Shown piece by piece: positions 1 through 10,897 of a stretch of 64,000 bases of DNA. Below the pieces are notes generated by a model. It was not told the DNA's origin. It made no database searches and saw nothing but the letters and a program-made list of their open reading frames with translations. The stretch is from an uncultured Chloroflexia bacterium (GTDB taxonomy: Bacteria > Chloroflexota > Anaerolineae > CG2-30-64-16): NCBI GenBank assembly GCA_963774265.1, contig CAVZDU010000007.1, forward strand, positions 288,001 to 352,000, written 5' to 3'. How positions within the stretch are numbered: position 1 is the first letter of the stretch; the number at the start of each line of letters is the position of its first letter. The position numbers and the translations under genes are program-made.

Positions 1-812
1 TTTTGGTGCGCGAACTCCGAGAGGTGGGGGTGAGCAGGGTTCCCTTCGTGCGCGATATGCGTTGCGCAAACACGCGCCTGCGGAGCCAATAAACCCTCGC
101 TCTGCAATCTCGCCGCCTGCTCGATGAATTGCCGAGCGTTCATGTGCCCACTCCCGGGTTGGTCAAGGCCATAGGTGTGGTCAAGAATCACCAAATCGAA
201 CTGCCATCTGCCGTCATGAAAGCCTCGCCAGGTCTCTTCCGGCAAAACGCCCGTGTCTGCGCCGTAAAACAGCGCGTGGTCGTCCCTTTGAACCGCGTAA
301 AGCAACGGCTCTATGACAGGGTCATGGTTTGCCGGAAACGCCATGACGCGATAAGGCCCCATCGTAAAGGATTGCAGCGGCTCAATCTCGTGGACCTGGA
401 GATTCAACCGTTCGCCCACTTGGGGATCGAGAAAACCGGCCGGCGCGCAGTCTCGCTCAAGCAGGCCTGCGGCATGGCGGAGTGTCCCGGAAGACGCATA
501 GAAGTCCAACCTTGATGCGCCGACCACACCATAACCAGGGCTCCGGGAGAGAAAATGCGACGTATCTAAATGATCGGCATGTGCATGTGTTTGTAGGCAA
601 TAGCGCACTCCGGATAGAGAGCGGCCCTGGGCATGGGACGCGGTCATGATATCAGGCCCGAGGTCGATGAGTAAGTCATCATCCACCAGCGCCGCAGAGC
701 GTGCGCGCAGGCTTTTCCCGCCGAGCGCCCGTGCCTGCTCGCAATTCTTACAGCGACAGAATGCCTCTGGAAAAGCATTTGCCGCAGAAGTACCGAGAAA
801 GGAGATGATCAT
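1..812 (-). CDS. PhnP-like metallo-beta-lactamase-fold phosphodiesterase (3' end runs off window; not in ORF track)
   Basis: Manual translation from ATG at 812: MIISFLGTSAANAFPEAFCRCKNCEQAR...LLIDLGPD...CLQTHAHADHL...NHD...YGADTG...GH...THIAH. The HxHxDH motif plus N-terminal CxCxxC is typical of the PhnP family. Confidence 0.85.
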   Translation of the reverse strand, partial: MIISFLGTSAANAFPEAFCRCKNCEQARALGGKSLRARSAALVDDDLLIDLGPDIMTASHAQGRSLSGVRYCLQTHAHADHLDTSHFLSRSPGYGVVGASRLDFYASSGTLRHAAGLLERDCAPAGFLDPQVGERLNLQVHEIEPLQSFTMGPYRVMAFPANHDPVIEPLLYAVQRDDHALFYGADTGVLPEETWRGFHDGRWQFDLVILDHTYGLDQPGSGHMNARQFIEQAARLQSEGLLAPQARVCATHIAHEGNPAHPHLSEFAHQ

Positions 813-868
813 TTTTCACTCCACTTGACGCGGCCTTGATCTCGCTACGCCCCGCGGGCGATCCGCGA

Positions 869-1686
869 TCACTGCCCACGGCCACGGATGTACGCGTCAC
901 ATCCGCGTTGTAGACGATCTCCTCGACCGTCATGGTCGCCCACGGCCGGCCCTGATCCAGCCAGGTGGCCGAGCCGGTGGCGTAGAGCTTCGTTCCCCCG
1001 ATGGTCGCGCCGGCCACGTTTCGCGTGATCCAGAGTATCTTTGATTTGCCCTCGCCCGGATCGCGATAACGCATTGCCTCCATCATGTCGATTAAATCCG
1101 TCTCGGGATTGAAGCGGACGACGAAGTTCTCTTGCCCCTCTTCGAAGGGGACGTAGAGCAGGGCGGTTTGGTCATCCACGGGCTGCCAGCGGACGCGCGA
1201 GTCTGTCACGAGGATTGCGGGAAACCAGCTCGCCTCCGCCCAAAGCGCCAGATTCGCGCCCTGGTTGGCGTTGGCGTCGTTCGTGTACGCGCCCATCGGA
1301 CTTTCGAAGAAGCTCTTGCCGTCCAGGTAGCCTTCGTTGACTTTCAGGAGCGGGGCGCCGAAGAGGGTGGCTTCAAAGTAGTGCCGGTAGTCGTGGCCAA
1401 CGTTATGGACGAAAACGAAGCGCGCCGGCAGCGGGATGTTGAACATCGGACGGATCGTGGCCCGGCCTGTGATGACTACGGTCTCGATCACCGGCACGCG
1501 CTCGCCGTAGACCGTGCGATAGAACCGCTCGACCGGCGCGGGCAACCCTGCTGGCAAGCGAACGGTCTCCAAGGTGGGTGTCGCCGCAGCATAGGCCGGG
1601 AACGGCTTTGGCTTGATCTGCAATCCTAGCCAGCCAACTAATACCAGGAGCGCGAGCGCTCCGACGATGATGAGCACGATTTTCAT
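869..1686 (-). CDS. DUF6544/DUF6920-like N-terminally anchored protein
   Basis: ORF 748..1686 with N-terminal TM helix and LPAPVERFY motif. A 1-base indel near 895 restores the C-terminus VTAYIRGRGQ* (stop at 869) and removes the overlap with the next gene. Confidence 0.7.
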
Positions 1687-1762
1687 GCCTGTATCGCTCC
1701 AGTCTTAGCAAGACAGGTCGGCTGCGTCGATGTGAAGCGCGGATCCATTCCCTGCCTGACGC

Positions 1763-2266
1763 CTACATCGCCCAACTTTGCAGCTCCAGGGCGTTGCCTT
1801 CCGGGTCGGTGACGTAGCACCAGGTGATGCGACCGCTGCCTCTGACTTCCACCGTCACCACCTCCCCAACGGGCTGGCCGCCAGCCGCCAGCACCGCGGC
1901 ACGCGCCGCCGCCACATCGGCCACGCTGAACGCCAGGTGGCCGAAGCCGGGCCGGTTGACTGCCGTCGGCGGCCGGCGGTCACCGGCCAAGCGGTCGTAC
2001 GTGAAGATCTCCAACGTCGGGCCGGCCTCGCCATGACCCGGCAGGCGGAGGTGGACCCCGCGCAGGTGTGCGGCAGGGAGGCCCGTACCAGCTTCGATGG
2101 CAGGTCCAGCCAGGTCGCGCTCCGGCGGCACTCGCACGCAGCCGAAGACCGTCTCGTAGAAACGGGCGAGCGCCTGCCAGTCGGCCGCGATCAGGTTGGT
2201 ATGGACATAGCGGGCCTGGAGCGATGGGGTCAGGGAAGAATCTTCAGCATGTGTCACCTCTTGCAT
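1763..2266 (-). CDS. VOC/glyoxalase family protein
   Basis: YVHTNL..A.DW..LARFY..VFG, LEIF, GFGHLAF.V.DV and DPEGN.LELQ motifs. Confidence 0.9.
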   Translation of the reverse strand: MQEVTHAEDSSLTPSLQARYVHTNLIAADWQALARFYETVFGCVRVPPERDLAGPAIEAGTGLPAAHLRGVHLRLPGHGEAGPTLEIFTYDRLAGDRRPPTAVNRPGFGHLAFSVADVAAARAAVLAAGGQPVGEVVTVEVRGSGRITWCYVTDPEGNALELQSWAM

Positions 2267-2412
2267 GATCGCGCATCGGCTCCAAAGAAGGGAATGAAGC
2301 GTTCGGTCATGTTGATCAAAACATGACCAGATTTCACGTAATCGAGCATAGCCTTCACTTTGGACAAATTCCTCGTGCCGGCCGATGATTTGTGGATCGA
2401 TGCGGTGGTCAT
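2254..2412 (-). CDS. Small hypothetical protein (52 aa) or gene remnant
   Basis: GGAGG RBS. Its ATG overlaps the upstream stop (ATGA) and its stop overlaps the VOC start. Sequence begins MTTASIHKSSAGTRNLSKVKAMLDYVKSGHVLINMTERF. Confidence 0.35.
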   Translation of the reverse strand: MTTASIHKSSAGTRNLSKVKAMLDYVKSGHVLINMTERFIPFFGADARSCKR

Positions 2413-2987
2413 TGGACCTCCAAGGCGTGGCCTGCGATATCGATCTGCGCGGCCGGCATGACCTTTAGCCCGGCTTCGCCCAGCTTGCGGTTCCACTCCT
2501 CGATGAGCCGCGCCGCGTCCTTGCTGTAACTGCTGTGACCGTCCTCGACCAGCACCACCGCGTAACCCAGCGCCTGCGCACCTTCGCACGTCGCCTTGAC
2601 GCAGCCATGGGTCACAAGACCCGTCACGACGACGCGGCCGACCCCGCGGCCGGCCAACTCCGCATGCAGCGACGTGTCCTCGAACGTGTTCCCGTGCTGC
2701 TTGTGAACGATCAGATCGTTTTCGCCGGGGTGAAGCCGGGGATGGAGCTGCCAGTCCGCTGAGCCGAGCGGCAGCACCTTGTCGGAAGCATGCTGGATGT
2801 AGACCACGAGCAGGCCGGCGCCACGAGCGCGCTGGATCAGCATTTCAATCGTCTTCAGCAGCGACTCCGCCCGGTAGATGGGAGTGGACTTGCGGAAAAG
2901 CCCCTGCTGCACATCGATCACCAGCAGCGCAGTGGCCTGTCCCTGAGCAGATGGCGCTGTTGGGCCTGGTCTATGATTCATTGTCAT
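2409..2987 (-). CDS. Isochorismatase-like cysteine hydrolase
   Basis: TALLVIDVQQG, HKQHGNTF and GLVTHGCV give the D-K-C triad. Start MTMNH follows GAGGAG. Confidence 0.9.
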   Translation of the reverse strand: MTMNHRPGPTAPSAQGQATALLVIDVQQGLFRKSTPIYRAESLLKTIEMLIQRARGAGLLVVYIQHASDKVLPLGSADWQLHPRLHPGENDLIVHKQHGNTFEDTSLHAELAGRGVGRVVVTGLVTHGCVKATCEGAQALGYAVVLVEDGHSSYSKDAARLIEEWNRKLGEAGLKVMPAAQIDIAGHALEVQ

Positions 2988-2992
2988 TCTCC

Positions 2993-3595
2993 TCATCCCA
3001 CGCGGTAGTAGCGCCGGACTGCAGGAACCAGGCTCAGCAAGGTAATCACCGCGCCGAGGAAGGTTGTGAACGCCTGGATCGGAGCGGCGTAGCCCATGAT
3101 GACGAATTGGCCGGCCATCCAGATCAGCAGGCCCACGCCCATTGCGAGCGTGATGACCCACTCCCACTCCCGACCCACCGACCGGGTGATCCCTGGGAAC
3201 CATTGCGGGCGGGCGATGAGCGTCCACGCGAGCACGAGCGGTGCGAGCCCGAACGCGATCAAGAGGAAGAAGCCGAACGGAAGGAAAGTGTCCAGAAAGC
3301 CGCGCAGCATGCTGACATCCATGCCCATCGATGCGCCAGTCGGGTCAGTGACGAAGGAATAGCCCCCGTACAAGCCGCCTGCGCCGAGAACGACGCAGAA
3401 GAAGACCAACAGATAGGCCCAGAAAGGCCGGCGTGTCTTCGCAGTTGTCATGATGCCCTCTCCAAAAATGATAGTCTGCCAGGCTGTAATACGGTGAAAA
3501 GCGTGCGGGGTTGCGAGGCGCCGGGAGTCTTCTAGCGAGGCATGAGCCGCCAATTGGCTTGGCCTGATTTTCGCTTCGCCAGGGTGGTTGGGCAT
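2993..3595 (-). CDS. Hypothetical 4-TM membrane protein (alternative start 3451)
   Basis: Four hydrophobic segments and a DPTGASMGM motif. GGAGGTGA precedes ATG 3595 and GGAGAGG precedes ATG 3451. Confidence 0.75.
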   Translation of the reverse strand: MPNHPGEAKIRPSQLAAHASLEDSRRLATPHAFHRITAWQTIIFGEGIMTTAKTRRPFWAYLLVFFCVVLGAGGLYGGYSFVTDPTGASMGMDVSMLRGFLDTFLPFGFFLLIAFGLAPLVLAWTLIARPQWFPGITRSVGREWEWVITLAMGVGLLIWMAGQFVIMGYAAPIQAFTTFLGAVITLLSLVPAVRRYYRVG

Positions 3596-3848
3596 GGATG
3601 ATCACCTCCAGTAGGATTATGCGCCTCAGCTCTGTCGATTCTATCGCGACGATCAGGCTGTTGCCATGACCCCTGTCATACGTGTTTATGAGCGGACGGA
3701 GGATGGAGACTGGTGTTCCAGGTTGGCGGGGTGCTGCGGCGCGGCGGGGGTGGCCCGGGGTGACGCTTTCGCACTCAGCCGACTGCCTTCGCCATTCTGG
3801 CATCGGGCCGCACTTGGGGTAGGATACACCTGATCGCCCGCTGTGAGG

Positions 3849-5723
3849 ATGCAAATGGGCATACCCAAATCATGGCTGCGGCCGCCGCGCGCATTCAACG
3901 TGATGCCGTTCTGGTTCTGGAACGACGCGCTGGATGAGCGCGAGATTGTCAGGCAGATCGCAGATATGGCGGCGCACGGGGTCTATGGCTTTGTCATCCA
4001 CCCGCGTGTCGGCCTGCCGCGGGACCTTGGCTGGATGTCAGAGCGCCTGCTGCACTTCTACGATGTGGCGATCGAGGAGGCGTGGCGGCGCAACATGCAC
4101 GTCATCCTCTACGATGAAGGCATGTATCCCTCGGGGGCTTCCTCCGGTCAGGTGGTCGCGGCCAACCCTGCCTTCCGCTGCCGCTGCCTGGCCGCGCTTG
4201 ACCTGCCGAATGGGGGCGAGCCGGTCCTGGCCGGCGACGCCAACCTGGTCGCGGTGGTGCGCCGCGCCAATGGCCGCCGCATTGCGGTGATCGACCGGCC
4301 CGCGGACAGCGTCATCCGCGGCCTGCACTACGTCGACGCTGGGCCGGCCGAAGATGAGCCGCCGGCTGCTGATATCCTCAACCCCGCCGCGGTCGCCGAG
4401 TTCATCCGCCTCGTCTACGACAGGTTTGCGACGCGCTTCAGTCGGCACTTCGGCGACCGCTCCGGCGGAAGCTCGACCGGCACCATCACCGCGATCTTCA
4501 CCGATGAGCCTACGCCGTTAGGCCGGTGCCGCGAGCACGGAGTCGTTCCCGGCACGCGCGGCATCCTGCCGGAGGTGAGCCGCATCCTGGGCTACGATTT
4601 TACGCCTCATCTCCCGGCTTTGTGGTTCGACGATGAGCCGGGCGCGGCGCGCTACCGGGGAGAATACGACCTGGCCATCGGCAAACGCCTGGAGGAGACC
4701 TTCTATGCCCAGTTGTACGCCTGGTGTGAGGCGCACGGCGTGGCGCTGACGGGCCACCCGGCGCAGGGGTGCGATATCGGCCCGCTGCGATTTTTCCACG
4801 CTCCCGGTCAGGACCTGGTGTGGCGGCGGGTCCTGCCCGATGATCCGTCGGCGCTGGAGGGGTGCGAGTCGACGCAGGCCAAGTGCAGCTCGTCCGCCAT
4901 GCTGCACGGCGGTCGGCGGCGCAACGCCAACGAGTGCTGCGGCGCCTACGGCCACGAGCTCACCTGGGATGAGATGACCTGGTTGGCCCACTGGTGCTTC
5001 ATCCGCGGGGTCAACTGGCTCTTCCCCCACGCCTTCTACTACTCGGTGGCTGGCCCGCGCTGGGACGAGCGGCCGCCGGACGTCGGTCCCCACGCGGCCT
5101 GGTGGGGTCGTTACCGGGAATACGCGGGCGCCTGTCGCCGGTTGAGCTGGCTCAACACCGGCGGCAGGCACGTCTGCCACATCGCCATCTTGGGCCAGTC
5201 CAATGCCTTGCCCTGGCGGCCGGCGAAGGTCTGCCTGGAGCACCAGCGGGACTTCAACTACTTGGAAGAGCGCCACCTGTGGGAGGATGTCCGGGTAGAC
5301 GCCGGCGGCATCCGTCTGGCTGGCATGCACTACCGTGCGCTGATCATCGAGGGTCCGGTGGATGGGCGGGCGGATGCGGCGTTGGCCGTGCTGGAGCAGG
5401 CGGGGCGCCTCATCCGTTACGGCAGCGAGATGGCCGATGCAGCGCTGGTCCAGCGTCTGATCGAGCGCCTGGACGAGCTCGCGCCGCCGGACATCCGCAT
5501 CTTCCCCTCTCTGCCGGGGATACGGGTGCGCCACAGCGTGCGCGCTGGGCGCCACCTCTTCATGCTCTTCAACGAAAAGGCCTCCGCGGTCGAGATGGAG
5601 GTCGTCCTGCCGGTCACGGGCGAGGCGGCTATGTTCGATCCCTGGACAGGCGAGTCGGGCCCCCTGCCCGCCGGCAGCGGCCTGGTCCTACCGGGTCACG
5701 CGTTTCGTATCATCGTTGTGTGA
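3849..5723 (+). CDS. Glycoside hydrolase, GH106/alpha-L-rhamnosidase-like
   Basis: PFWFWN, HPRVGL, LYDEGMYPSG, IFTDEP, TGH and HAFYYS motifs. Confidence 0.75.
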   Translation: MQMGIPKSWLRPPRAFNVMPFWFWNDALDEREIVRQIADMAAHGVYGFVIHPRVGLPRDLGWMSERLLHFYDVAIEEAWRRNMHVILYDEGMYPSGASSGQVVAANPAFRCRCLAALDLPNGGEPVLAGDANLVAVVRRANGRRIAVIDRPADSVIRGLHYVDAGPAEDEPPAADILNPAAVAEFIRLVYDRFATRFSRHFGDRSGGSSTGTITAIFTDEPTPLGRCREHGVVPGTRGILPEVSRILGYDFTPHLPALWFDDEPGAARYRGEYDLAIGKRLEETFYAQLYAWCEAHGVALTGHPAQGCDIGPLRFFHAPGQDLVWRRVLPDDPSALEGCESTQAKCSSSAMLHGGRRRNANECCGAYGHELTWDEMTWLAHWCFIRGVNWLFPHAFYYSVAGPRWDERPPDVGPHAAWWGRYREYAGACRRLSWLNTGGRHVCHIAILGQSNALPWRPAKVCLEHQRDFNYLEERHLWEDVRVDAGGIRLAGMHYRALIIEGPVDGRADAALAVLEQAGRLIRYGSEMADAALVQRLIERLDELAPPDIRIFPSLPGIRVRHSVRAGRHLFMLFNEKASAVEMEVVLPVTGEAAMFDPWTGESGPLPAGSGLVLPGHAFRIIVV

Positions 5724-5800
5724 AGTGCACCGTCGGAGTCGTCGCCGGACATGAGTTGAGGGGTTCGCCCGACGCTGGGCGGCTAGCCAAACGCGCTTGG

Positions 5801-5855
5801 AAAACAAAAAGCCCCCGCGATCACCAATCGCAGGAGCCACATTCGGGGACGACGG
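5801..5855 (-). repeat. Distal copy of tRNA-Asp 3' end (12 bp) plus intrinsic terminator; att-like scar
   Basis: CGGGGACGACGG at 5844-5855 equals the tRNA 3' end. It is followed on the minus strand by GGCTCCTGCGAT-TGGTG-ATCGCGGGGGCT-TTTTGTTTT. Confidence 0.85.
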
Positions 5856-5989
5856 AATTTACTCAATTTCTTGTAGAATGCACCGACATAACTCCCACCG
5901 CCCACGCGTGGTACCATCCTCGAACCGCCCCACCTCGTCAATTGGATCGTTTGACACGTATTCGATTGCCGTTCGTGGACAGGCCATCC

Positions 5990-6044
5990 TACAGAGGGGA
6001 CAAACCTCTGTGCCCACTTTATAGAGGGCGAACCTCTTTGCCCA
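5990..6044. repeat. Two tandem ~26-bp imperfect direct repeats, each a small hairpin
   Basis: TACAGAGGGGACAAACCTCTGTGCCCA and TATAGAGGGCGAACCTCTTTGCCCA; AGAGG/CCTCT stems. Confidence 0.6.
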
Positions 6045-6165
6045 TTACTCGGTCGCGAAACGGAACCCTATGGCCAGCTGAGGGTCTTTCATCACCCCGG
6101 GGCGGCAAGCGGCGCGCCGGTAGAGATCAAACTGGGATGGAGCGGTATGCTCCTTGGCGGTCGGA

Positions 6166-7815
6166 TTATCTTGTCACCTTCGCCAGCGCCGCCAGATCCT
6201 CGGCATTGCTGATCAGGATGCCGTTCTCTGCGGCGAAGGTCAGGGCATCGGGGGTGAAGCCGGCCTGCGAGACACACCAGGGACGCGCCTGGAGCTCGGC
6301 CGCCGCGGTCAGGAGCTGTTCCAACTCACTGCGGCCGACCCGCTTCTGTCGCCACTTGACTTCGACCGCCCATCGTTCGCCGTTCTCTGCGAGCGCGTCG
6401 ATCTCCGTCTGGCCATCCGGCGACCGGTACGGTTCGATGCGCGTGAAGGCCGGCACGGGGATCGGGTCAGTCTGACCCAGGTAGGCGCCGGGGACGGTTC
6501 GTCCGGCCAGCTTGCGCAGCAACTCCCGCACTTCGCTTTCCTTGGCGCGGCCCAGTTGGGTCGAGGCGCGCGCGAACCGCTCAGCCAGGTCCGCCACCAG
6601 CGCCTTGAGCTCTTCCTGGCGCGGGAAGCCGTCGATTGCCACACCCTTCGTGGTCTGCGCCACCCAATAGCGGAACACCGGATCGGCGTAGAAATAGCGC
6701 CCTTGACGCTCCACTAACAGATCCACCTCCATCAAGCGCCTGAGGTAGTCGCGTGCAGCCGACGCCTGGCGCCGCACGCGGCTGGCGACCTCCGAGAGCG
6801 CCAGGCCATCTTCGATCGCCAGGATCTGGAGCAGCGCCTTGAGCACGCCATAGCCGCGCGCCTTCTGAAGCGAGATGTCGTACAGGTAGCGGCAGTAGCC
6901 ATAGATCTGGCCCCGATTTTCCAGCGCTTCCAACACGAACGCCTGACTGACCAACTCGGGCGAAACCGCTTCGGTCGCGCCTGCGGCCAACTCGCGCACG
7001 CGTTCAGCCAGCGCAGTGACATAGAAGGGGTGACCGAAGGTGTAGGTGTGAATCGCCGCCTGCGCCGCGGGCGACAGCCGGCCGACCAGCTTCTCGGTGA
7101 GCGCCTGTGTATCTTCCGGCGTGAAGGGGTGCAGCTCCAGCGCACGAAACTGGAGGAACAGGGGTGACTGGTGATCCTGCACGATGTGCTCGGTCGCGCT
7201 GACGGCTGACCCGGTAATGACATAAGCAACCCGGGTTTGGCGCTGCAGCGCAGCGCGGAAGTGCTTGAGCGGATCCCCGACACCGGGAAAACTGCCCAGG
7301 GTGAGCAACTCGGGGAACTCATCCAGGAAATACATGAGCGGCCGACCAAGCGCTTCAGCCAGGCGTTCGGGGAAGTCGAAAGCGATGTTGAGTAGAGTAG
7401 TATAGTCAACCTTTTGCTTGCCCATCTCGTTGATGAGCGCGGCTGCGGTGCGCGTAACCACCGACAGACTCCCCGCATTGGTCTGCATCAGGTCGGTGGC
7501 ACTAAGGTAGGGATCGGCTGGACCCTCCCCATGATCGACCGCCCAGAAGCAGGAGAGCCCAACATAGCGCTGCGTAAAGAGCTCCGGTGAACTGGCGAGG
7601 TCCTGCAGGTCGAGGTAGACGGGGATCACCTTGCCGCTCGCGTGCAGTCGGCGCATCTGTTCCTGGCAGACCAGCGTCTTCCCGATACGACGCAGGCCGA
7701 AAAGCGCCACGTGGCGCGGCCGGCCCACCAGCAGGTCATCGGCGACCAGCGCCAGGGTGGTCAGCTCGCTGACTCGATTGGTGAAGTAGGGGGGTGTGGT
7801 ATAGATGCCGGTCAT
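6166..7815 (-). CDS. Archaeal-type (STAND-like) ATPase fused to wHTH and C-terminal PD-(D/E)xK Mrr/DUF234-like nuclease
   Basis: FTNRVSEL, Walker A GLRRIGKT, Walker B YFLDEF, GHPFY, wHTH LSEVASRVRR..ARDYLRRL, nuclease EIDAL..AVEVKW..SQAGFT. GGAGG RBS before ATG 7815. Confidence 0.85.
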   Translation of the reverse strand: MTGIYTTPPYFTNRVSELTTLALVADDLLVGRPRHVALFGLRRIGKTLVCQEQMRRLHASGKVIPVYLDLQDLASSPELFTQRYVGLSCFWAVDHGEGPADPYLSATDLMQTNAGSLSVVTRTAAALINEMGKQKVDYTTLLNIAFDFPERLAEALGRPLMYFLDEFPELLTLGSFPGVGDPLKHFRAALQRQTRVAYVITGSAVSATEHIVQDHQSPLFLQFRALELHPFTPEDTQALTEKLVGRLSPAAQAAIHTYTFGHPFYVTALAERVRELAAGATEAVSPELVSQAFVLEALENRGQIYGYCRYLYDISLQKARGYGVLKALLQILAIEDGLALSEVASRVRRQASAARDYLRRLMEVDLLVERQGRYFYADPVFRYWVAQTTKGVAIDGFPRQEELKALVADLAERFARASTQLGRAKESEVRELLRKLAGRTVPGAYLGQTDPIPVPAFTRIEPYRSPDGQTEIDALAENGERWAVEVKWRQKRVGRSELEQLLTAAAELQARPWCVSQAGFTPDALTFAAENGILISNAEDLAALAKVTR

Positions 7816-7831
7816 GCGGATAACCTCCAAC

Positions 7832-7897
7832 TTAAGCCAAATGGCTTATAAGCCATTTGGCTTAATCAGTATGCCACAGACCATCAAGTAGCGTCAA
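7832..7897 (-). promoter_or_regulatory. Sigma70-like promoter followed by perfect 34-bp palindromic operator
   Basis: -35 TTGACG (7897-7892), 18-nt spacer, -10 CATACT (7873-7868). The palindrome TTAAGCCAAATGGCTTATAAGCCATTTGGCTTAA (7832-7865) ends just before the RBS. Confidence 0.7.
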
Positions 7898-8029
7898 ATC
7901 GGCGCGAGGGCAGCGCGACAGGCTTCCAAGTGAGTTGCCAATCATGAGCAACGGGGGCGCTCGGTTTTGGTTGGCGATGCCGCCATCTCGTCGCTGGAGT
8001 CATGCTGCGGCCGGTCGCGCACCAAATCT

Positions 8030-8205
8030 GCGCCAGGCACAGCCGCATGACCTCTTCCTCCGGATCACGGCTGCCGTCTATCCAGGCAACGCCGTCCCGG
8101 AAGGCGCGCATAACCTGCTCGTTGTCAGCCAAGGCCCTCGCGATGACGGTCTTGCCAATGCCGGTCATGCCGTAGAGGATCACCGCTCGCCAGCGCGCCT
8201 GGCGA
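8030..8205 (-). pseudogene. NB-ARC (STAND NTPase) fragment
   Basis: AVILYGMTGIGKTVIARALADNEQVMRAFRDGVAWI matches the NB-ARC Walker A and F.DGV.W strand. Truncated on both sides. Confidence 0.7.
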
Positions 8206-8214
8206 TAGTCAGTC

Positions 8215-8464
8215 AAGGACTTGTGGCCGGTTATCATGTCGCGCTCGACGTGGCGACGCCGGTGACAATGCACCGCTACACCCTGAACCACACGACCGCG
8301 CCCATCGGTTGGGGCTACAACAACCCGCTGCGCTGGACGCAGCGCGTCCCGTTCATCTCCAGTCTGTACCAGGCGGCCACTGGGTCGGCCCGTCGGGGGT
8401 CGTCAACGTCGCCACTTCCGGCAAGCACGCCGCCGAACTGATCCTGCGAGACCTGCCCGCCTGA
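8215..8464 (+). pseudogene. C-terminal fragment of phytoene-dehydrogenase-like FAD oxidoreductase
   Basis: VATPVTMHRYTLN..GW..LYQA/GHWVGPSGVVNVATSGKHAAELILRDLPA* with one indel near 8375. No N-terminal Rossmann motif. Confidence 0.6.
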
Positions 8465-8478
8465 CCGACGCCCTATTA

Positions 8479-8534
8479 GCAACAAGAACGCCTGCGAGCG
8501 CGGCTCACACGCGCCACATACGGGGACGACGGGG
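8479..8534 (-). repeat. Middle copy of tRNA-Asp 3' end (14 bp) plus terminator; att-like scar
   Basis: CGGGGACGACGGGG at 8521-8534 is identical to 9811-9824. It is followed on the minus strand by GGCGCGTGTGAG-CCGCG-CTCGCAGGCGTT-CTTGTTG. Confidence 0.85.
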
Positions 8535-8567
8535 GCGGAAGTCGTCTGTGCCAGAAGCGCTTCGTGT

Positions 8568-9512
8568 CTATGGCCCTACCTCGCTCTTTCCGATGCCAAC
8601 CGTATCTTTTAGGAAATCCGTAAGGTAGTTGCCAAGTACGCTCACGACTATCGCGACAAGGATCGCGGTCAGAAGGAAAGCGCCAACTCCCATTCGCTTT
8701 CGCACAAACTTCGCGTACTCGCCCCAGAGGAAGTTGTAGGGTGGAAAGAAGTACCACCAGAATAGAATGGCCCCGGCAATCAAGACCAGCAACCCCAGTG
8801 TAAACGCGTAACTCTTTAGCTGACGATTTACTGTGCTGTTGTACCAGAGAGCTGCGTCCCTGTCTTGCCTCAATTCCAGTTTCTTCATCTCGAAGACTGC
8901 CGCAATAGGATCGCTCAGTTCGCCGCTTTTCCACTTGGCTTCAAGGGCGGTTAATTCATCCACTTCTGAAGCTGGTCTCGGATAGGCGAGCGGCCCGGCA
9001 ACTTGATATGCGAAGGCCGCCAACGCCAGAAAGGCAATCACTAGCGGTATCAGGACCCAGCCAAGCGCTTTGATAGAACTGGGAGCGATTCGGCTAATCC
9101 GGCGTATTCGCTCTTCCACGATAGAGCGCGTCACAGACACCCAATCTTGGTCGTGACCCTCTATCCTGTATGTTATCGGCGTGGAGAGATACAAGGATTC
9201 AAACAAGCTCAAAGTATCGACGTTCATAAAGCTGACTTGAATTGCTGCTCGGGGATCTTCGATCCTGTCAAGGACCTTAATTAGCAGAAAGGTAATGGCA
9301 TTTTCGCCGCCGTTCTCTAGCGCTAAGACTTCTGCCAGTGTAGTACTTTGGATTATCACACGGTTCCTAAACCAAACGTCAATGCTAATCCTTGCCGTGC
9401 CTTCAGAAGTTGCCTTTCGTACCTGCTGCACCAGGCTGTCATGGAGCCTCTGCAATTGTTCTCGTGACAAGTCAAAGCCATGTGGATAGTTCTTCTGTAT
9501 CTGGCTGTTCAT
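8568..9512 (-). CDS. Hypothetical membrane protein (soluble N-domain plus 3 TM helices), visibly lower GC
   Basis: Intact 314-aa ORF with many A/T-ending codons and three hydrophobic helices. Sole gene between two tRNA-end repeats. Confidence 0.8.
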   Translation of the reverse strand: MNSQIQKNYPHGFDLSREQLQRLHDSLVQQVRKATSEGTARISIDVWFRNRVIIQSTTLAEVLALENGGENAITFLLIKVLDRIEDPRAAIQVSFMNVDTLSLFESLYLSTPITYRIEGHDQDWVSVTRSIVEERIRRISRIAPSSIKALGWVLIPLVIAFLALAAFAYQVAGPLAYPRPASEVDELTALEAKWKSGELSDPIAAVFEMKKLELRQDRDAALWYNSTVNRQLKSYAFTLGLLVLIAGAILFWWYFFPPYNFLWGEYAKFVRKRMGVGAFLLTAILVAIVVSVLGNYLTDFLKDTVGIGKSEVGP

Positions 9513-9559
9513 TGGAATTGCGCTCCATTAATTTAGGAGAATTGCTGTCGGCTATGCCA

Positions 9560-9692
9560 GGTCGTGATGGCCTTAGGCGCGACGAGGGCGGTGGCAGTCC
9601 GTAGGACACCGCTCAAGCGGTCGTCGCTAGCCGAGAGCACGACCAGGAAGCAGAAGCATCATCTCTCGCGCCGATGCTCGCGGCCTTGTGTA
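9560..9692 (-). other. Structured leader / long imperfect hairpin element flanked by 17-bp imperfect direct repeats
   Basis: Nested pairings GGTCGTG/CACGACC, GCGACGA/TCGTCGC, GCGGTG/CACCGC and GTCC/GGAC. Flanks are TGCTGTCGGCTATGCCA (9543-9559) and TGCTGTCGATTATACCA (9693-9709; minus strand contains TGGTATAAT). Confidence 0.45.
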
Positions 9693-9767
9693 TGCTGTCG
9701 ATTATACCAAATCATGTAGGTTTCGAGAATTGGCGTGAAGGAGCATGATTGATAAGGAGGCGAATGG

Positions 9768-9808
9768 GCAACAAAAAGCCCCTGCGAGCACTACTCACAG
9801 GAGCCATA
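9768..9808 (-). terminator. Intrinsic terminator of tRNA-Asp
   Basis: Minus strand GGCTCCTGTGAG-TAGTG-CTCGCAGGGGCT-TTTTGTTG. Confidence 0.8.
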
Positions 9809-9810
9809 TA

Positions 9811-9883
9811 CGGGGACGACGGGGCTCGAACCCGCGATCTTCGGCTTGACAGGCCGACATGTTAACCACTACACTACGTCCCC
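9811..9883 (-). tRNA. tRNA-Asp (GTC), CCA not encoded
   Basis: GGGGACG TA GTGT AGTGGTTA ACAT G TCGGC CT-GTC-AA GCCGA AGATC GCGGG TTCGAGC CCCGT CGTCCCC G folds as a full cloverleaf. Confidence 0.97.
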
Positions 9884-9926
9884 AGTTGTCTGACCGCTCA
9901 CGTCATTGTGACCGCCGACGCTTTGA

Positions 9927-9955
9927 TTTATATCATACCCGTTATTCCCCGTCAA
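9927..9955 (-). promoter_or_regulatory. tRNA promoter
   Basis: TTGACG-17 nt-TATAAA with a TG extension, upstream of the tRNA. Confidence 0.6.
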
Positions 9956-9988
9956 ATTGGATACCCGGTTCTTTTTTAGGAGCTCGAT

Positions 9989-10897
9989 TTGACCCCTTAT
10001 CTCGGTGAGTTGGCCGCGCTCGCCACGGCGACGCTGTGGGCCTTTTCTTCGATCGCATTCACCCTGGGCGGTCAACGCGTGGGGTCGGTGATCGTGAACC
10101 GCGCACGCCTGGTGATGGCCGTGGTGCTTCTCGGCGTCGCGCATTGGCTGCTGATCGGCAAGCTGTTCCCCTGGGACGCAGGACTGGATCGGTTTCTGTG
10201 GCTCGGCGCCTCGGGCCTGATTGGGCTGGTGATCGGCGATAGCATGCTGTTCCAGTGCTATGTCCTGGTCGGTGCACGCATCGGCGTGTTGCTGATGTCG
10301 CTGTCGCCGGTCGTCGGGACGCTCCTGGCTTGGGTGTTTCTGGGCGAGGTGCTCACACTGGGGGAAATCGGAGCGGTGGCACTGGCGCTCGCGGGGGTGA
10401 CCTGGGTGGTGCTGGAACGCGGCAAAGGCGGCGCTCCTGGCGCGGGGGAGGGTCGCAACTACGGCCGCGGCATCCTCTACGGGATCGGTGCGTCAGCATG
10501 CCAGGCAATCGGCCTAGTGGTGGCCAAGCCCGGCCTGGCCGACGGGTTCCCCGCGCTCTCTGCGACGATGATCCGCATGATGGCCGCAATGCTCGCCATG
10601 TGGCTGATCGCGACCGCAACCGGAACCGCGGGCCATACGATCCGCAGGGTGCGCGCCGATCGCCGGGCGGCGTTGGCGATTCTGGCCGGGTCCTTCATCG
10701 GGCCGTTCCTCGGCGTGTGGCTGTCGTTGATCGCGGTGCAATCCGCCCGGGTCGGCATCGCGTCGACCTTGATGGCGATGACCCCGGTCGTCTCACTTCC
10801 ACTGGTGCCCCTGTTCTTCAACGAACGCGTATCCCCGCGCGCGGTGCTCGGGACCCTCGTCGCAGTCGCCGGGATCGCACTGATGATCCTGCAGTAG
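9989..10897 (+). CDS. DMT/EamA family transporter
   Basis: About 10 TM helices in two EamA repeats; GELAALATA and FLGE motifs. Confidence 0.9.
   Translation: MTPYLGELAALATATLWAFSSIAFTLGGQRVGSVIVNRARLVMAVVLLGVAHWLLIGKLFPWDAGLDRFLWLGASGLIGLVIGDSMLFQCYVLVGARIGVLLMSLSPVVGTLLAWVFLGEVLTLGEIGAVALALAGVTWVVLERGKGGAPGAGEGRNYGRGILYGIGASACQAIGLVVAKPGLADGFPALSATMIRMMAAMLAMWLIATATGTAGHTIRRVRADRRAALAILAGSFIGPFLGVWLSLIAVQSARVGIASTLMAMTPVVSLPLVPLFFNERVSPRAVLGTLVAVAGIALMILQ

Follow-up and report, generated by a model that had tools for sequence, protein, structure and literature searches.

A three-copy tRNA-Asp 3'-end repeat in an Anaerolineae genome and its probable origin in decayed serine-recombinase elements

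The stretch of DNA described here, hereafter the window, comprises 64,000 nucleotides (nt) of contig CAVZDU010000007.1 from the genome of an uncultured bacterium of the Anaerolineae (Chloroflexota). It contains a single tRNA gene, identified by ARAGORN as tRNA-Asp(GTC). Downstream of this gene, two short units of DNA are bounded by displaced copies of the tRNA 3' end, and each copy is followed by a hairpin. The present analysis concerns the origin of this arrangement, for which recombinase-bearing elements at the same tRNA gene in related genomes provide a probable model.

The genome searched amounts to 5,512,303 bp in 10 contigs, is 84% complete and carries the window on a 569-kb contig (C7). 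Comparisons were made within a family of 37 species-level genomes of the Anaerolineae, namely the genome itself (G000) and 36 relatives. G labels denote family genomes, C labels contigs within a genome, and L labels the individual loci compared. A wide survey of large serine recombinases (LSRs) drew on one genome per species across Chloroflexota. None of the metagenome runs contained half or more of the stretch; four runs from four studies (wastewater twice, wetland, and soil) were compared.

The tRNA-Asp gene and its three-copy repeat

The tRNA-Asp gene is present once among the 50 tRNAs of the genome. A 12-nt core, CCGTCGTCCCCG, which comprises the 3' strands of the T and acceptor stems together with the discriminator base, occurs exactly at positions 5844, 8521, and 9811, each time on the minus strand. 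The 12-mer is weak by itself: 0.88 matches are expected at up to one mismatch, and at least three occurred in 7 of 100 shuffles. The full repeat extends over 63 nt, and the copies are named A, B, and C from the tRNA outwards (Table 1). Copy A is 83% and copy B 67% identical to copy C. Unit 1 lies between copies A and B, and unit 2 between copies B and C. An initial annotation, made from the sequence before any database search, had listed the core at these three positions and described two units between the copies. Both observations hold, with repeat spacings of 1290 and 2677 nt. The concern that the repeat might occur widely away from tRNA genes proved unfounded, as a 20-nt degenerate pattern with up to two mismatches found three places only in the entire genome, and a control pattern gave 0 matches. 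A regular-expression scan agrees with the three copies, apart from copy A, which falls outside the terminator pattern by design, and it detected no further same-orientation copies with shorter cores near the locus. An intact tRNA gene is thereby accompanied by displaced 3'-end copies of the same orientation that bound foreign DNA, the layout of an island in a tRNA gene. Pfam searches of the open reading frames (ORFs) of both units found no recombinase domain inside it.

Each core is followed by a hairpin, with a T run behind it on the tRNA strand. Folding energies are similar (-21.8, -20.3, and -21.1 kcal/mol for A, B, and C, respectively). Hairpins A and C fold better than all 200 of 200 shuffles (z = -3.56 and -3.08), whereas hairpin B is no better than chance (z = -0.92; 28 of 200 shuffles fold equally well). 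Terminator scoring assigns a 13-bp stem and a T tail to A and C, and a 5-bp partial stem only to B. A GC-rich stem-loop with a T run, as predicted for Rho-independent termination, is accordingly present in A and C and only partly in B. The initial annotation placed a homologous terminator hairpin after every copy; this stands for A and C, but hairpin B has decayed. The compensatory substitutions that it named are present. Between A and C, a G-C pair is replaced by U-A, U-G by C-G, and U-A by U-G; between A and B, U-G is replaced by G-C, and B contains a G-G mismatch.

Three hairpins are too few for covariation statistics, so the covariation is backed by an alignment of 22 hairpins: the 3 of the window, 3 of the same form from relatives, and 16 from recombinase-bearing elements. 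Within this alignment, 93.0% of 286 cells pair, compared with 84.1% in shuffles, and both sides change in 9 of 13 pairs. The observed values were reached by 0 of 500 shuffles on four of five measures and by 3 of 500 on the fifth. Pairing falls to 35-45.5% when the partner is slid by 1-3 columns. Together with the T run, this covariation predicts a conserved terminator-type structure, and the hairpin of copy A is predicted to be the working terminator of tRNA-Asp.

Two forms of the junction can be distinguished. In the short form, the hairpin stands 6 nt from the core, as in all three copies of the window. In the long form, the core is followed by CTGGGACAAT..., a spacer of ~60 nt, and then the hairpin. 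The long form is the left end of LSR elements in relatives, and the window has none.

Table 1. Features of the tRNA-Asp locus, in window coordinates
Feature	Position	Strand	Description
EamA/DMT transporter	9989..10897	+	Pfam; conserved neighbour upstream of the tRNA
tRNA-Asp(GTC)	9810..9884	-	ARAGORN; Rfam tRNA, 72.7 bits; CCA not encoded
Copy A	9760..9822	-	Core 9811-9822, the tRNA's own 3' end; stem 9777-9805, then T tail; left end of unit 1
Unit 1	8533..9759	-	Low GC content; promoter element, ~190-nt leader, single ORF
Copy B	8470..8532	-	Core, 14 nt in common with the tRNA; decayed hairpin with G-G mismatch and broken T run; junction of units 1 and 2
NB-ARC/STAND-type N-terminal fragment	7983..8183	-	~62 codons, P-loop; Pfam NB-ARC, 26.5 bits
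ATPase-Mrr block	6172..8044	-	1.87 kb; gene 6166-7830, 554 amino acids
Right-end relic of LSR-type element	5856..5990	-	135 nt; conserved ...ACAAGAAATTGAGTAAATT, then core
Copy C	5793..5855	-	12-nt core, one C fewer than in relatives; intact hairpin, stem 5810-5838, T tail
LSR 3' coding-end relic	5744..5843	+	Nucleotide match to G014:C40; 28-amino-acid translation at 5755-5838
GH106-like glycoside hydrolase	3843..5723	+	24 bits against a Pfam cut-off of 29; converges on copy C

Serine recombinases at tRNA-Asp in relatives and their probable relics in the window

In G010 and G045, an LSR gene encoding Resolvase, Recombinase, and Zn_ribbon_recom domains reads toward tRNA-Asp, and its 3' end directly adjoins the tRNA. 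In Anaerolineae relatives with this arrangement, a homologous hairpin lies within the LSR gene, 65-78 nt beyond the end of the tRNA. G014 has a distinct LSR, of 794 amino acids, at a distance of 270 nt from the tRNA. The long-form junction gave 9 matches in 8 of the 37 family genomes and 0 in G000. An LSR gene follows it in G010, G045, G014:C8, and G046, and the gene has been lost at other long-form junctions (G047, G014:C40, and G015). The long form stands behind a complete tRNA-Asp in G010, G045, G015, and G018. Behind a partial core preceded by the end of another element, it occurs in G014:C8, G014:C40, G046:C41, G047:C70, and G019:C123. These five cases indicate that tandem arrays exist in relatives too. 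G047 also holds a short-form core and a long-form relic 14.7 kb apart on one contig, and two sets of 14 ORFs scanned between and beyond these cores contained no recombinase domain. Among the long-form elements, some have two tandem LSR genes ~38% identical to each other (L082, at G014:C8:122000-140000, L080, and L081). The element across the junction in G014:C8 has a GC content of 0.70-0.73 and contains ParM-like and DUF6009 genes. At L118 (G018:C139), the long-form start behind a complete tRNA-Asp passes directly into a later part of the LSR 3' region, reflecting an internal deletion at the end of the LSR gene.

The Chloroflexota survey yielded 40 loci with LSR homologues. The LSR gene ends at tRNA-Asp in 15 of them and at tRNA-Ser in 4, and many of the other 21 stop at a contig edge. 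In 18 of the 19 tRNA-bearing loci, the LSR reading frame stops inside or past the tRNA. Ten frames stop 55 nt into it, with tails such as ...GDDG(I/V)RTRDLxLDRxxC. Hence, the attachment site appears to lie within the 3' end of the recombinase gene, where the final 12-14 nt of the tRNA and the hairpin with its T run are present in antisense. As the C-terminal tail would be encoded by the antisense of the tRNA, it must change on excision. Literature searches at abstract level brought up no clear account of a serine recombinase with a frame that terminates within the tRNA it targets. A scan of viral contigs with the LSR gave one contig, at 44% identity. PF00589, the tyrosine integrase family, was absent from the 35 ORFs scanned beside tRNA-Asp at eight of the relatives' loci.

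The window contains no LSR gene abutting the tRNA with its frame ending inside; what it does contain is a relic of ~28 codons beside copy C. Over 97 nt, positions 5744-5837 align with the long-form block of G014:C40 at 79% identity. On the plus strand, positions 5755-5838 encode 28 amino acids that are 46% identical to LSR residues ~40 amino acids from the C-terminus. This frame remains open across hairpin C and leads into GDDG, a motif that the core encodes. Where junctions lack an LSR gene, the retained portion of its 3' end varies in length: 56-59 amino acids in G047, 67-96 in G014:C40, 86-88 in G015, and 28-42 in the window. Such variation fits independent deletions. It also led us to reject, as the preferred account, a reading in which the long-form block is native chromosomal DNA, with an attB of up to ~170 nt and copy C as a plain attR.

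The opposite flank of copy C (5836-5990) matches the right ends of elements in relatives, with 92% identity over 157 nt to G022:C69 and 79% to G004:C74. Further matches of this right end reach 81.5% over 130 nt to G014:C8 and 85% over 54 nt to G046:C41. Metagenome contigs from three of the four runs match precisely the interval 5854-5990. Beyond it, they lead into core and long form at one end and into a common sequence unlike the window at the other. In G022, G046, and G014:C8, the LSR frame terminates 1-6 codons past GDDG at a stop contributed by the right end, which fits the latter being the other half of the same attachment site. A plasmid-like element bearing this right end (G004 and G014) encodes a ParM-like partition protein, the single-stranded DNA-binding protein SSB, an excisionase-like helix-turn-helix protein, and DUF6009, and it gave no phage structural matches.

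No integrase had been noticed at the locus in the initial annotation, and neither PF00589 nor an LSR match was found on contig C7. The search for a tyrosine recombinase that it had proposed returned 14 PF00589 matches in the genome, all on other contigs. Two LSR proteins of relatives, used as tblastn queries, gave no match on C7, and their best matches, on other contigs, reach 31% and 28% identity.

Besides the three copies of the window, the short form is present in G002, G047, and G049. A pattern scan of metagenome contigs added a single contig (L129), arranged as in G002, and no further arrays. Loss of the sequence between the core and GTCCCTG, a degenerate second core ahead of the hairpin, could have converted the long form into the short form; in copy C, such a deletion leaves the LSR frame intact. 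Alternatively, the short form may come from an unsampled element family or represent a native terminator in part of the family. ATGTGGC directly follows the core in all short forms, with one mismatch in copy A. On visual inspection, some right ends (two in G047, and L137) carry its reverse complement 12 nt ahead of the core. The two motifs may constitute a recombinase half-site pair.

Cargo of the units and chromosomal surroundings

Unit 1 has a GC content of 0.47-0.54, compared with 0.626 for the genome. An extended -10 element, TGgTATAAT, at 9701-9709 is followed by the leader and by one ORF at 8568-9512 (314 amino acids). Hydrophobic stretches in the translation suggest a membrane protein. 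It belongs to no family in Pfam, PADLOC, or PHROGs, and its matches in a protein atlas are unnamed clusters only. Two distant homologues (32% and 27% identity) were retrieved from among 5.8 billion proteins, and none of the 36 family genomes contains a homologue of the gene. The leader (9513-9700, minus strand), located between the TGgTATAAT element and the gene start, is GC-rich. An Rfam search over 5500-10200 at E <=1 returned only the tRNA, so that the leader is without a match. Unit 1 and the end of the GH106-like gene are not covered by the four metagenome runs, which says nothing on the presence or mobility of either.

Unit 2 (5856-8469) is a mosaic. It consists of an NB-ARC fragment, the ATPase-Mrr block, ~180 nt of other sequence, and the conserved 135-nt end. 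The full-length relative of the NB-ARC fragment is a gene of 291 amino acids within an LSR island at tRNA-Asp (G014:C65). The fragment is 58% identical to it over amino acids 1-62, and 77% identical at the nucleotide level over 182 nt. A stretch on the plus strand (8231-8461) had been likened to the broken C-terminus of an FAD-dependent oxidoreductase. This assignment was dropped: Pfam gave nothing at E <=1, tblastn found no paralogue in the own genome, and there were 0 matches in the 36 family genomes.

The 554-amino-acid protein of the ATPase-Mrr block combines an AAA-type ATPase, a winged-helix region, and a C-terminal Mrr_cat nuclease domain. A sigma-70-like promoter lies ahead of the gene (7868-7897), and a perfect 34-nt palindrome (7832-7865) separates it from the start codon. 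A match to PADLOC PDC-S27 at 4.8e-7 is weak evidence for a candidate defence gene. Homologues of the protein occur in 16 of the 37 family genomes, with 98% identity in G004 and 99% in G049, which belongs to another genus, whereas the neighbouring EamA orthologues are only 52-83% identical. The shared DNA block (6172/6178-8044) is 96% identical in G004 and 92-98% in G049. None of the relatives' loci has a tRNA core nearby, and their flanks mostly differ from those of the window. In the four metagenome runs, pieces of 300-1000 nt of the block have 0-6 differences and other flanks. By these sequence comparisons, the block is predicted to spread horizontally, separately from unit 2. The same 200 nt flank the block on each side in L101 (G004:C12) and L103 (G049:C63), which are assigned to different genera. 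Such identity points either to a binning error or to very recent transfer involving a longer segment.

Upstream of the tRNA, the neighbourhood is shared with relatives. An EamA homologue stands beside tRNA-Asp in 10 of the 19 relatives' loci scanned, and several others end there at a contig edge. The cross-genome comparison proposed in the initial annotation was carried out in this family. DNA downstream of tRNA-Asp differs in every relative examined, and none of the 36 genomes has the unit 1 gene. Assemblies break in or right beside tRNA-Asp at G002:C197, G002:C113, G016:C43, G019:C15, G006:C346, and G024:C24, which is what strain-variable DNA at the site would cause. On the far side of copy C, the GH106-like gene is the first of ~45 kb of sugar-utilisation genes. 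Its homologues in G015, G010, and G024 share the gene itself and not the flanks, and are uninformative on the native junction. A block located 49 kb from the tRNA in G000 is only 2.4 kb away from tRNA-Asp in G001. The extra 45 kb (G000:C7:248821-293800, that is, window 1-5700 and the 39 kb before it) encode GH67, GH28, oligogalacturonate lyase, and GH106-like proteins and an ABC transporter, a set for pectin and sugar use. They have normal GC content and no mobile-element genes, and were not counted into the array. Elsewhere on the contig (L170 and L171, G000:C7:246001-286000), genes including adh_short, BPD_transp_1, GFO_IDH_MocA, and GH3 are split into adjacent ORFs. This pattern suggests frameshift errors of the assembly, and hence apparently broken genes of this genome need care.

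Origin of the array and comparison with known systems

The locus probably represents integrative elements that inserted one after another at the 3' end of the single tRNA-Asp gene, decayed, and are now frozen in place as a tandem array of relics comparable to cis-mobilizable elements (CIMEs). The likely agent, judging from the relics and the elements of relatives, is an LSR and not a tyrosine integrase. In the proposed course of events, each insertion would swap the tRNA 3' end, supply a new terminator, and displace the old junction downstream, and this would have happened at least three times. The oldest insert would have left copy C, hairpin C, and the ~28 codons of the LSR 3' end. The next would account for the 135-nt right end (5856-5990) and the left-end hairpin of copy B, its interior having been lost; that interior would now hold the NB-ARC fragment and the separately acquired ATPase-Mrr gene. 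The youngest insert would be unit 1, which contributed hairpin A, a promoter, and one low-GC orphan gene. Each hairpin would at some time have terminated a tRNA that is essential and present as a single copy, so that deletions could have eliminated the recombinase but not the hairpin. With the recombinase gone, the array would now be immobile.

Much of the initial annotation fits this course. The repeats mark the tRNA-Asp 3' end as an integration hot spot, and tandem accretion of several inserts, loss of their integrases, and a terminator hairpin brought by each insert are likewise supported. Other proposals require revision. Integration appears sequential as suggested, but three relics are present and not two, since copy C is itself flanked by element remains. 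Moreover, the 2.6-kb unit is not an element with clean ends but a mosaic that includes a separately spreading gene. A derivation of the units by internal deletion from recombinase-bearing islands, which the initial annotation had named as evidence against its reading, is partly backed by the existence of such elements in relatives and by the right end and LSR relic (5755-5838) that the window keeps; for unit 1, no related element was found.

Several points weigh against an LSR-driven origin. The window has no LSR gene, and the attribution rests on relics and relatives; the 28-amino-acid relic itself is a weak match (E = 3e-4 in a 4.4-kb database). For unit 1, a matching right end was found in no relative, and its cargo shows no link to LSR elements. 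The short form has never been seen with an LSR gene, so copies A and B may stem from another element family or from a native terminator. Canonical LSRs recombine attP with attB only. Serial insertion into an occupied site would hence need an attB-like arm recreated by the left end, or non-canonical events. In a genome that is 84% complete, the recombinase could also sit in the missing part. Finally, copy B has decayed more than copy C, although the latter is the oldest, which would need the extra assumption that copy C still terminates convergent genes.

The agent named in the initial annotation was a tyrosine integrase, and we regard as highly improbable an array built by such an enzyme with the relatives' LSR elements merely using the same hot spot. 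Tyrosine integrases are used by most mapped islands in tRNA genes, as outlined in PMC4383910, the exact repeat of 12-14 nt has the usual size, and the genome has 14 PF00589 matches. However, none of the 14 is on this contig, the relatives' loci lack the family in the 35 ORFs beside tRNA-Asp and in the element ends scanned, and their recombinase at the site is an LSR abutting the tRNA. The window's own relics likewise derive from an LSR element. A second alternative would make the short-form hairpin the native terminator of tRNA-Asp, with copies B and C produced by homologous recombination or gene conversion between the arrays of different strains, or by segmental duplication. G002, the closest relative, and metagenome contig L129 have a complete tRNA-Asp with the same short-form hairpin and no second core within 14.5 kb. 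G049 also has the short-form hairpin after a complete tRNA, and the different DNA downstream in every relative speaks for frequent rearrangement. Yet the DNA adjoining cores B and C on the upstream side shows no similarity to the tRNA even at its first base, as is the case at site-specific junctions. After the conserved right end and core, either the long form, the short form, or another flank follows depending on the genome, which places the exchange at the core. In addition, three element-free relatives of the same genus or family (G001, G007, and G024) have a different terminator. This origin is considered very unlikely.

It is also unlikely that units 1 and 2 are small non-autonomous cassettes with working attachment sites, moved in trans or in cis by an incoming element or a recombinase encoded elsewhere, whether as functional CIMEs or by integron-like accretion. 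Both units do have a core at each end, unit 1 with an intact left-end hairpin besides, and unit 1 is a compact arrangement of a single gene behind its promoter. The integrase-less 14.7-kb unit between cores in G047, free of recombinase domains in its scanned ORFs, would be another such case, and the ATGTGGC pair could recreate an insertable site. Mobilisation of such relics in cis is documented in streptococci, as outlined in PMC5704250. Against cassettes stand the gene fragments in unit 2, the decayed hairpin B, the flanks and end points with which the ATPase-Mrr block travels, which differ from those of unit 2, and the lack of a close LSR in the 84%-complete genome. The trans-mobilised variant favoured for unit 1 in the initial annotation gained no positive support: the genome yielded no cognate recombinase, and the unit 1 gene, absent from the 36 family genomes searched and with two distant homologues in the large protein set, was found in no other array.

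A broader proposal, which we hold to be doubtful, is that the array records the activity of an undescribed LSR clade of Chloroflexota with the attachment site inside the recombinase's own 3' coding end. Short-form scars would then recreate an insertable site, making the tRNA a cassette-collecting platform served in trans by passing LSR elements. If true, the last LSR codons (...GDDG, with an RTRDL-type tail) would be the antisense of tRNA-Asp or tRNA-Ser. Integration and excision would rewrite the C-terminal tail of the enzyme and could set directionality, and the terminator hairpin within the same coding stretch would re-terminate the tRNA.

Beyond this proposal, the locus and its relatives offer an initial look at the mobilome of Anaerolineae from wastewater and sediment, in which tRNA-Asp is a recurrent hot spot and the integrase is of the serine type. 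They also suggest why tRNA islands leave orderly scars: an insert must supply the terminator of a single-copy tRNA, and deletions would consequently stop at the hairpin. The LSR clade of the relatives is a possible source of site-specific integrases with a conserved natural target.

Integron arrays resemble the locus in having short, often one-gene units in one orientation between hairpin-forming repeats. Unlike integrons, the window has neither IntI nor attI, and the contents of its units are mosaic. PF00589 is absent from the contig, and the repeats, a tRNA core with perfect 13-bp-stem terminators and T tails, are not attC sites by description, no attC models having been run. Integrases of the SSV1-type archaeal viruses are tyrosine recombinases with attP inside the integrase gene, which is split on integration. 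Both systems have a tRNA-like attachment sequence in the recombinase frame; here, the recombinase is of the serine type, and only its last few codons are exchanged.

Closer parallels exist among tRNA-linked islands. Islander-type islands, as outlined in PMC4383910, are defined by an intact tRNA gene, displaced same-orientation 3' fragments at the island ends, and a tyrosine integrase inside. The window has the same tRNA and fragments, and the tyrosine integrase is not present. As described in bioRxiv 10.1101/2020.12.28.424599, tycheposon islands of Prochlorococcus lie beside tRNA genes, where newer elements push older ones outward. Scattered partial tRNAs and fragmented integrases accompany them, and 27 of 937 elements carry a large serine recombinase. 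The locus is likewise tRNA-linked and would be built by repeated insertion. It differs in its phylum, in the structured terminator kept at each scar, and in a recombinase gene that overlaps the attachment site. The CIMEs of the ICESt1/ICESt3 family in Streptococcus thermophilus have lost integration and transfer genes, have kept attL and attR, and form tandems at the 3' end of a target gene through integration, decay, and further integration (PMC5704250). Like them, units 1 and 2 have cores at both ends and no recombinase. Descent from an autonomous element of the same site may apply to unit 2 and the copy C relic, where the right end and the LSR 3' end match LSR elements; for unit 1, no related autonomous element was found. 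Unlike in streptococci, the target is tRNA-Asp in Chloroflexota, the recombinase of intact relatives is an LSR and not a tyrosine integrase, no conjugation genes are recognised, and the units are known from sequence alone. In this comparison, the locus is probably an ordinary decayed tRNA-linked tandem island of a pattern already described in streptococci and Prochlorococcus, and the recombinase architecture of its intact relatives is the more interesting lead.

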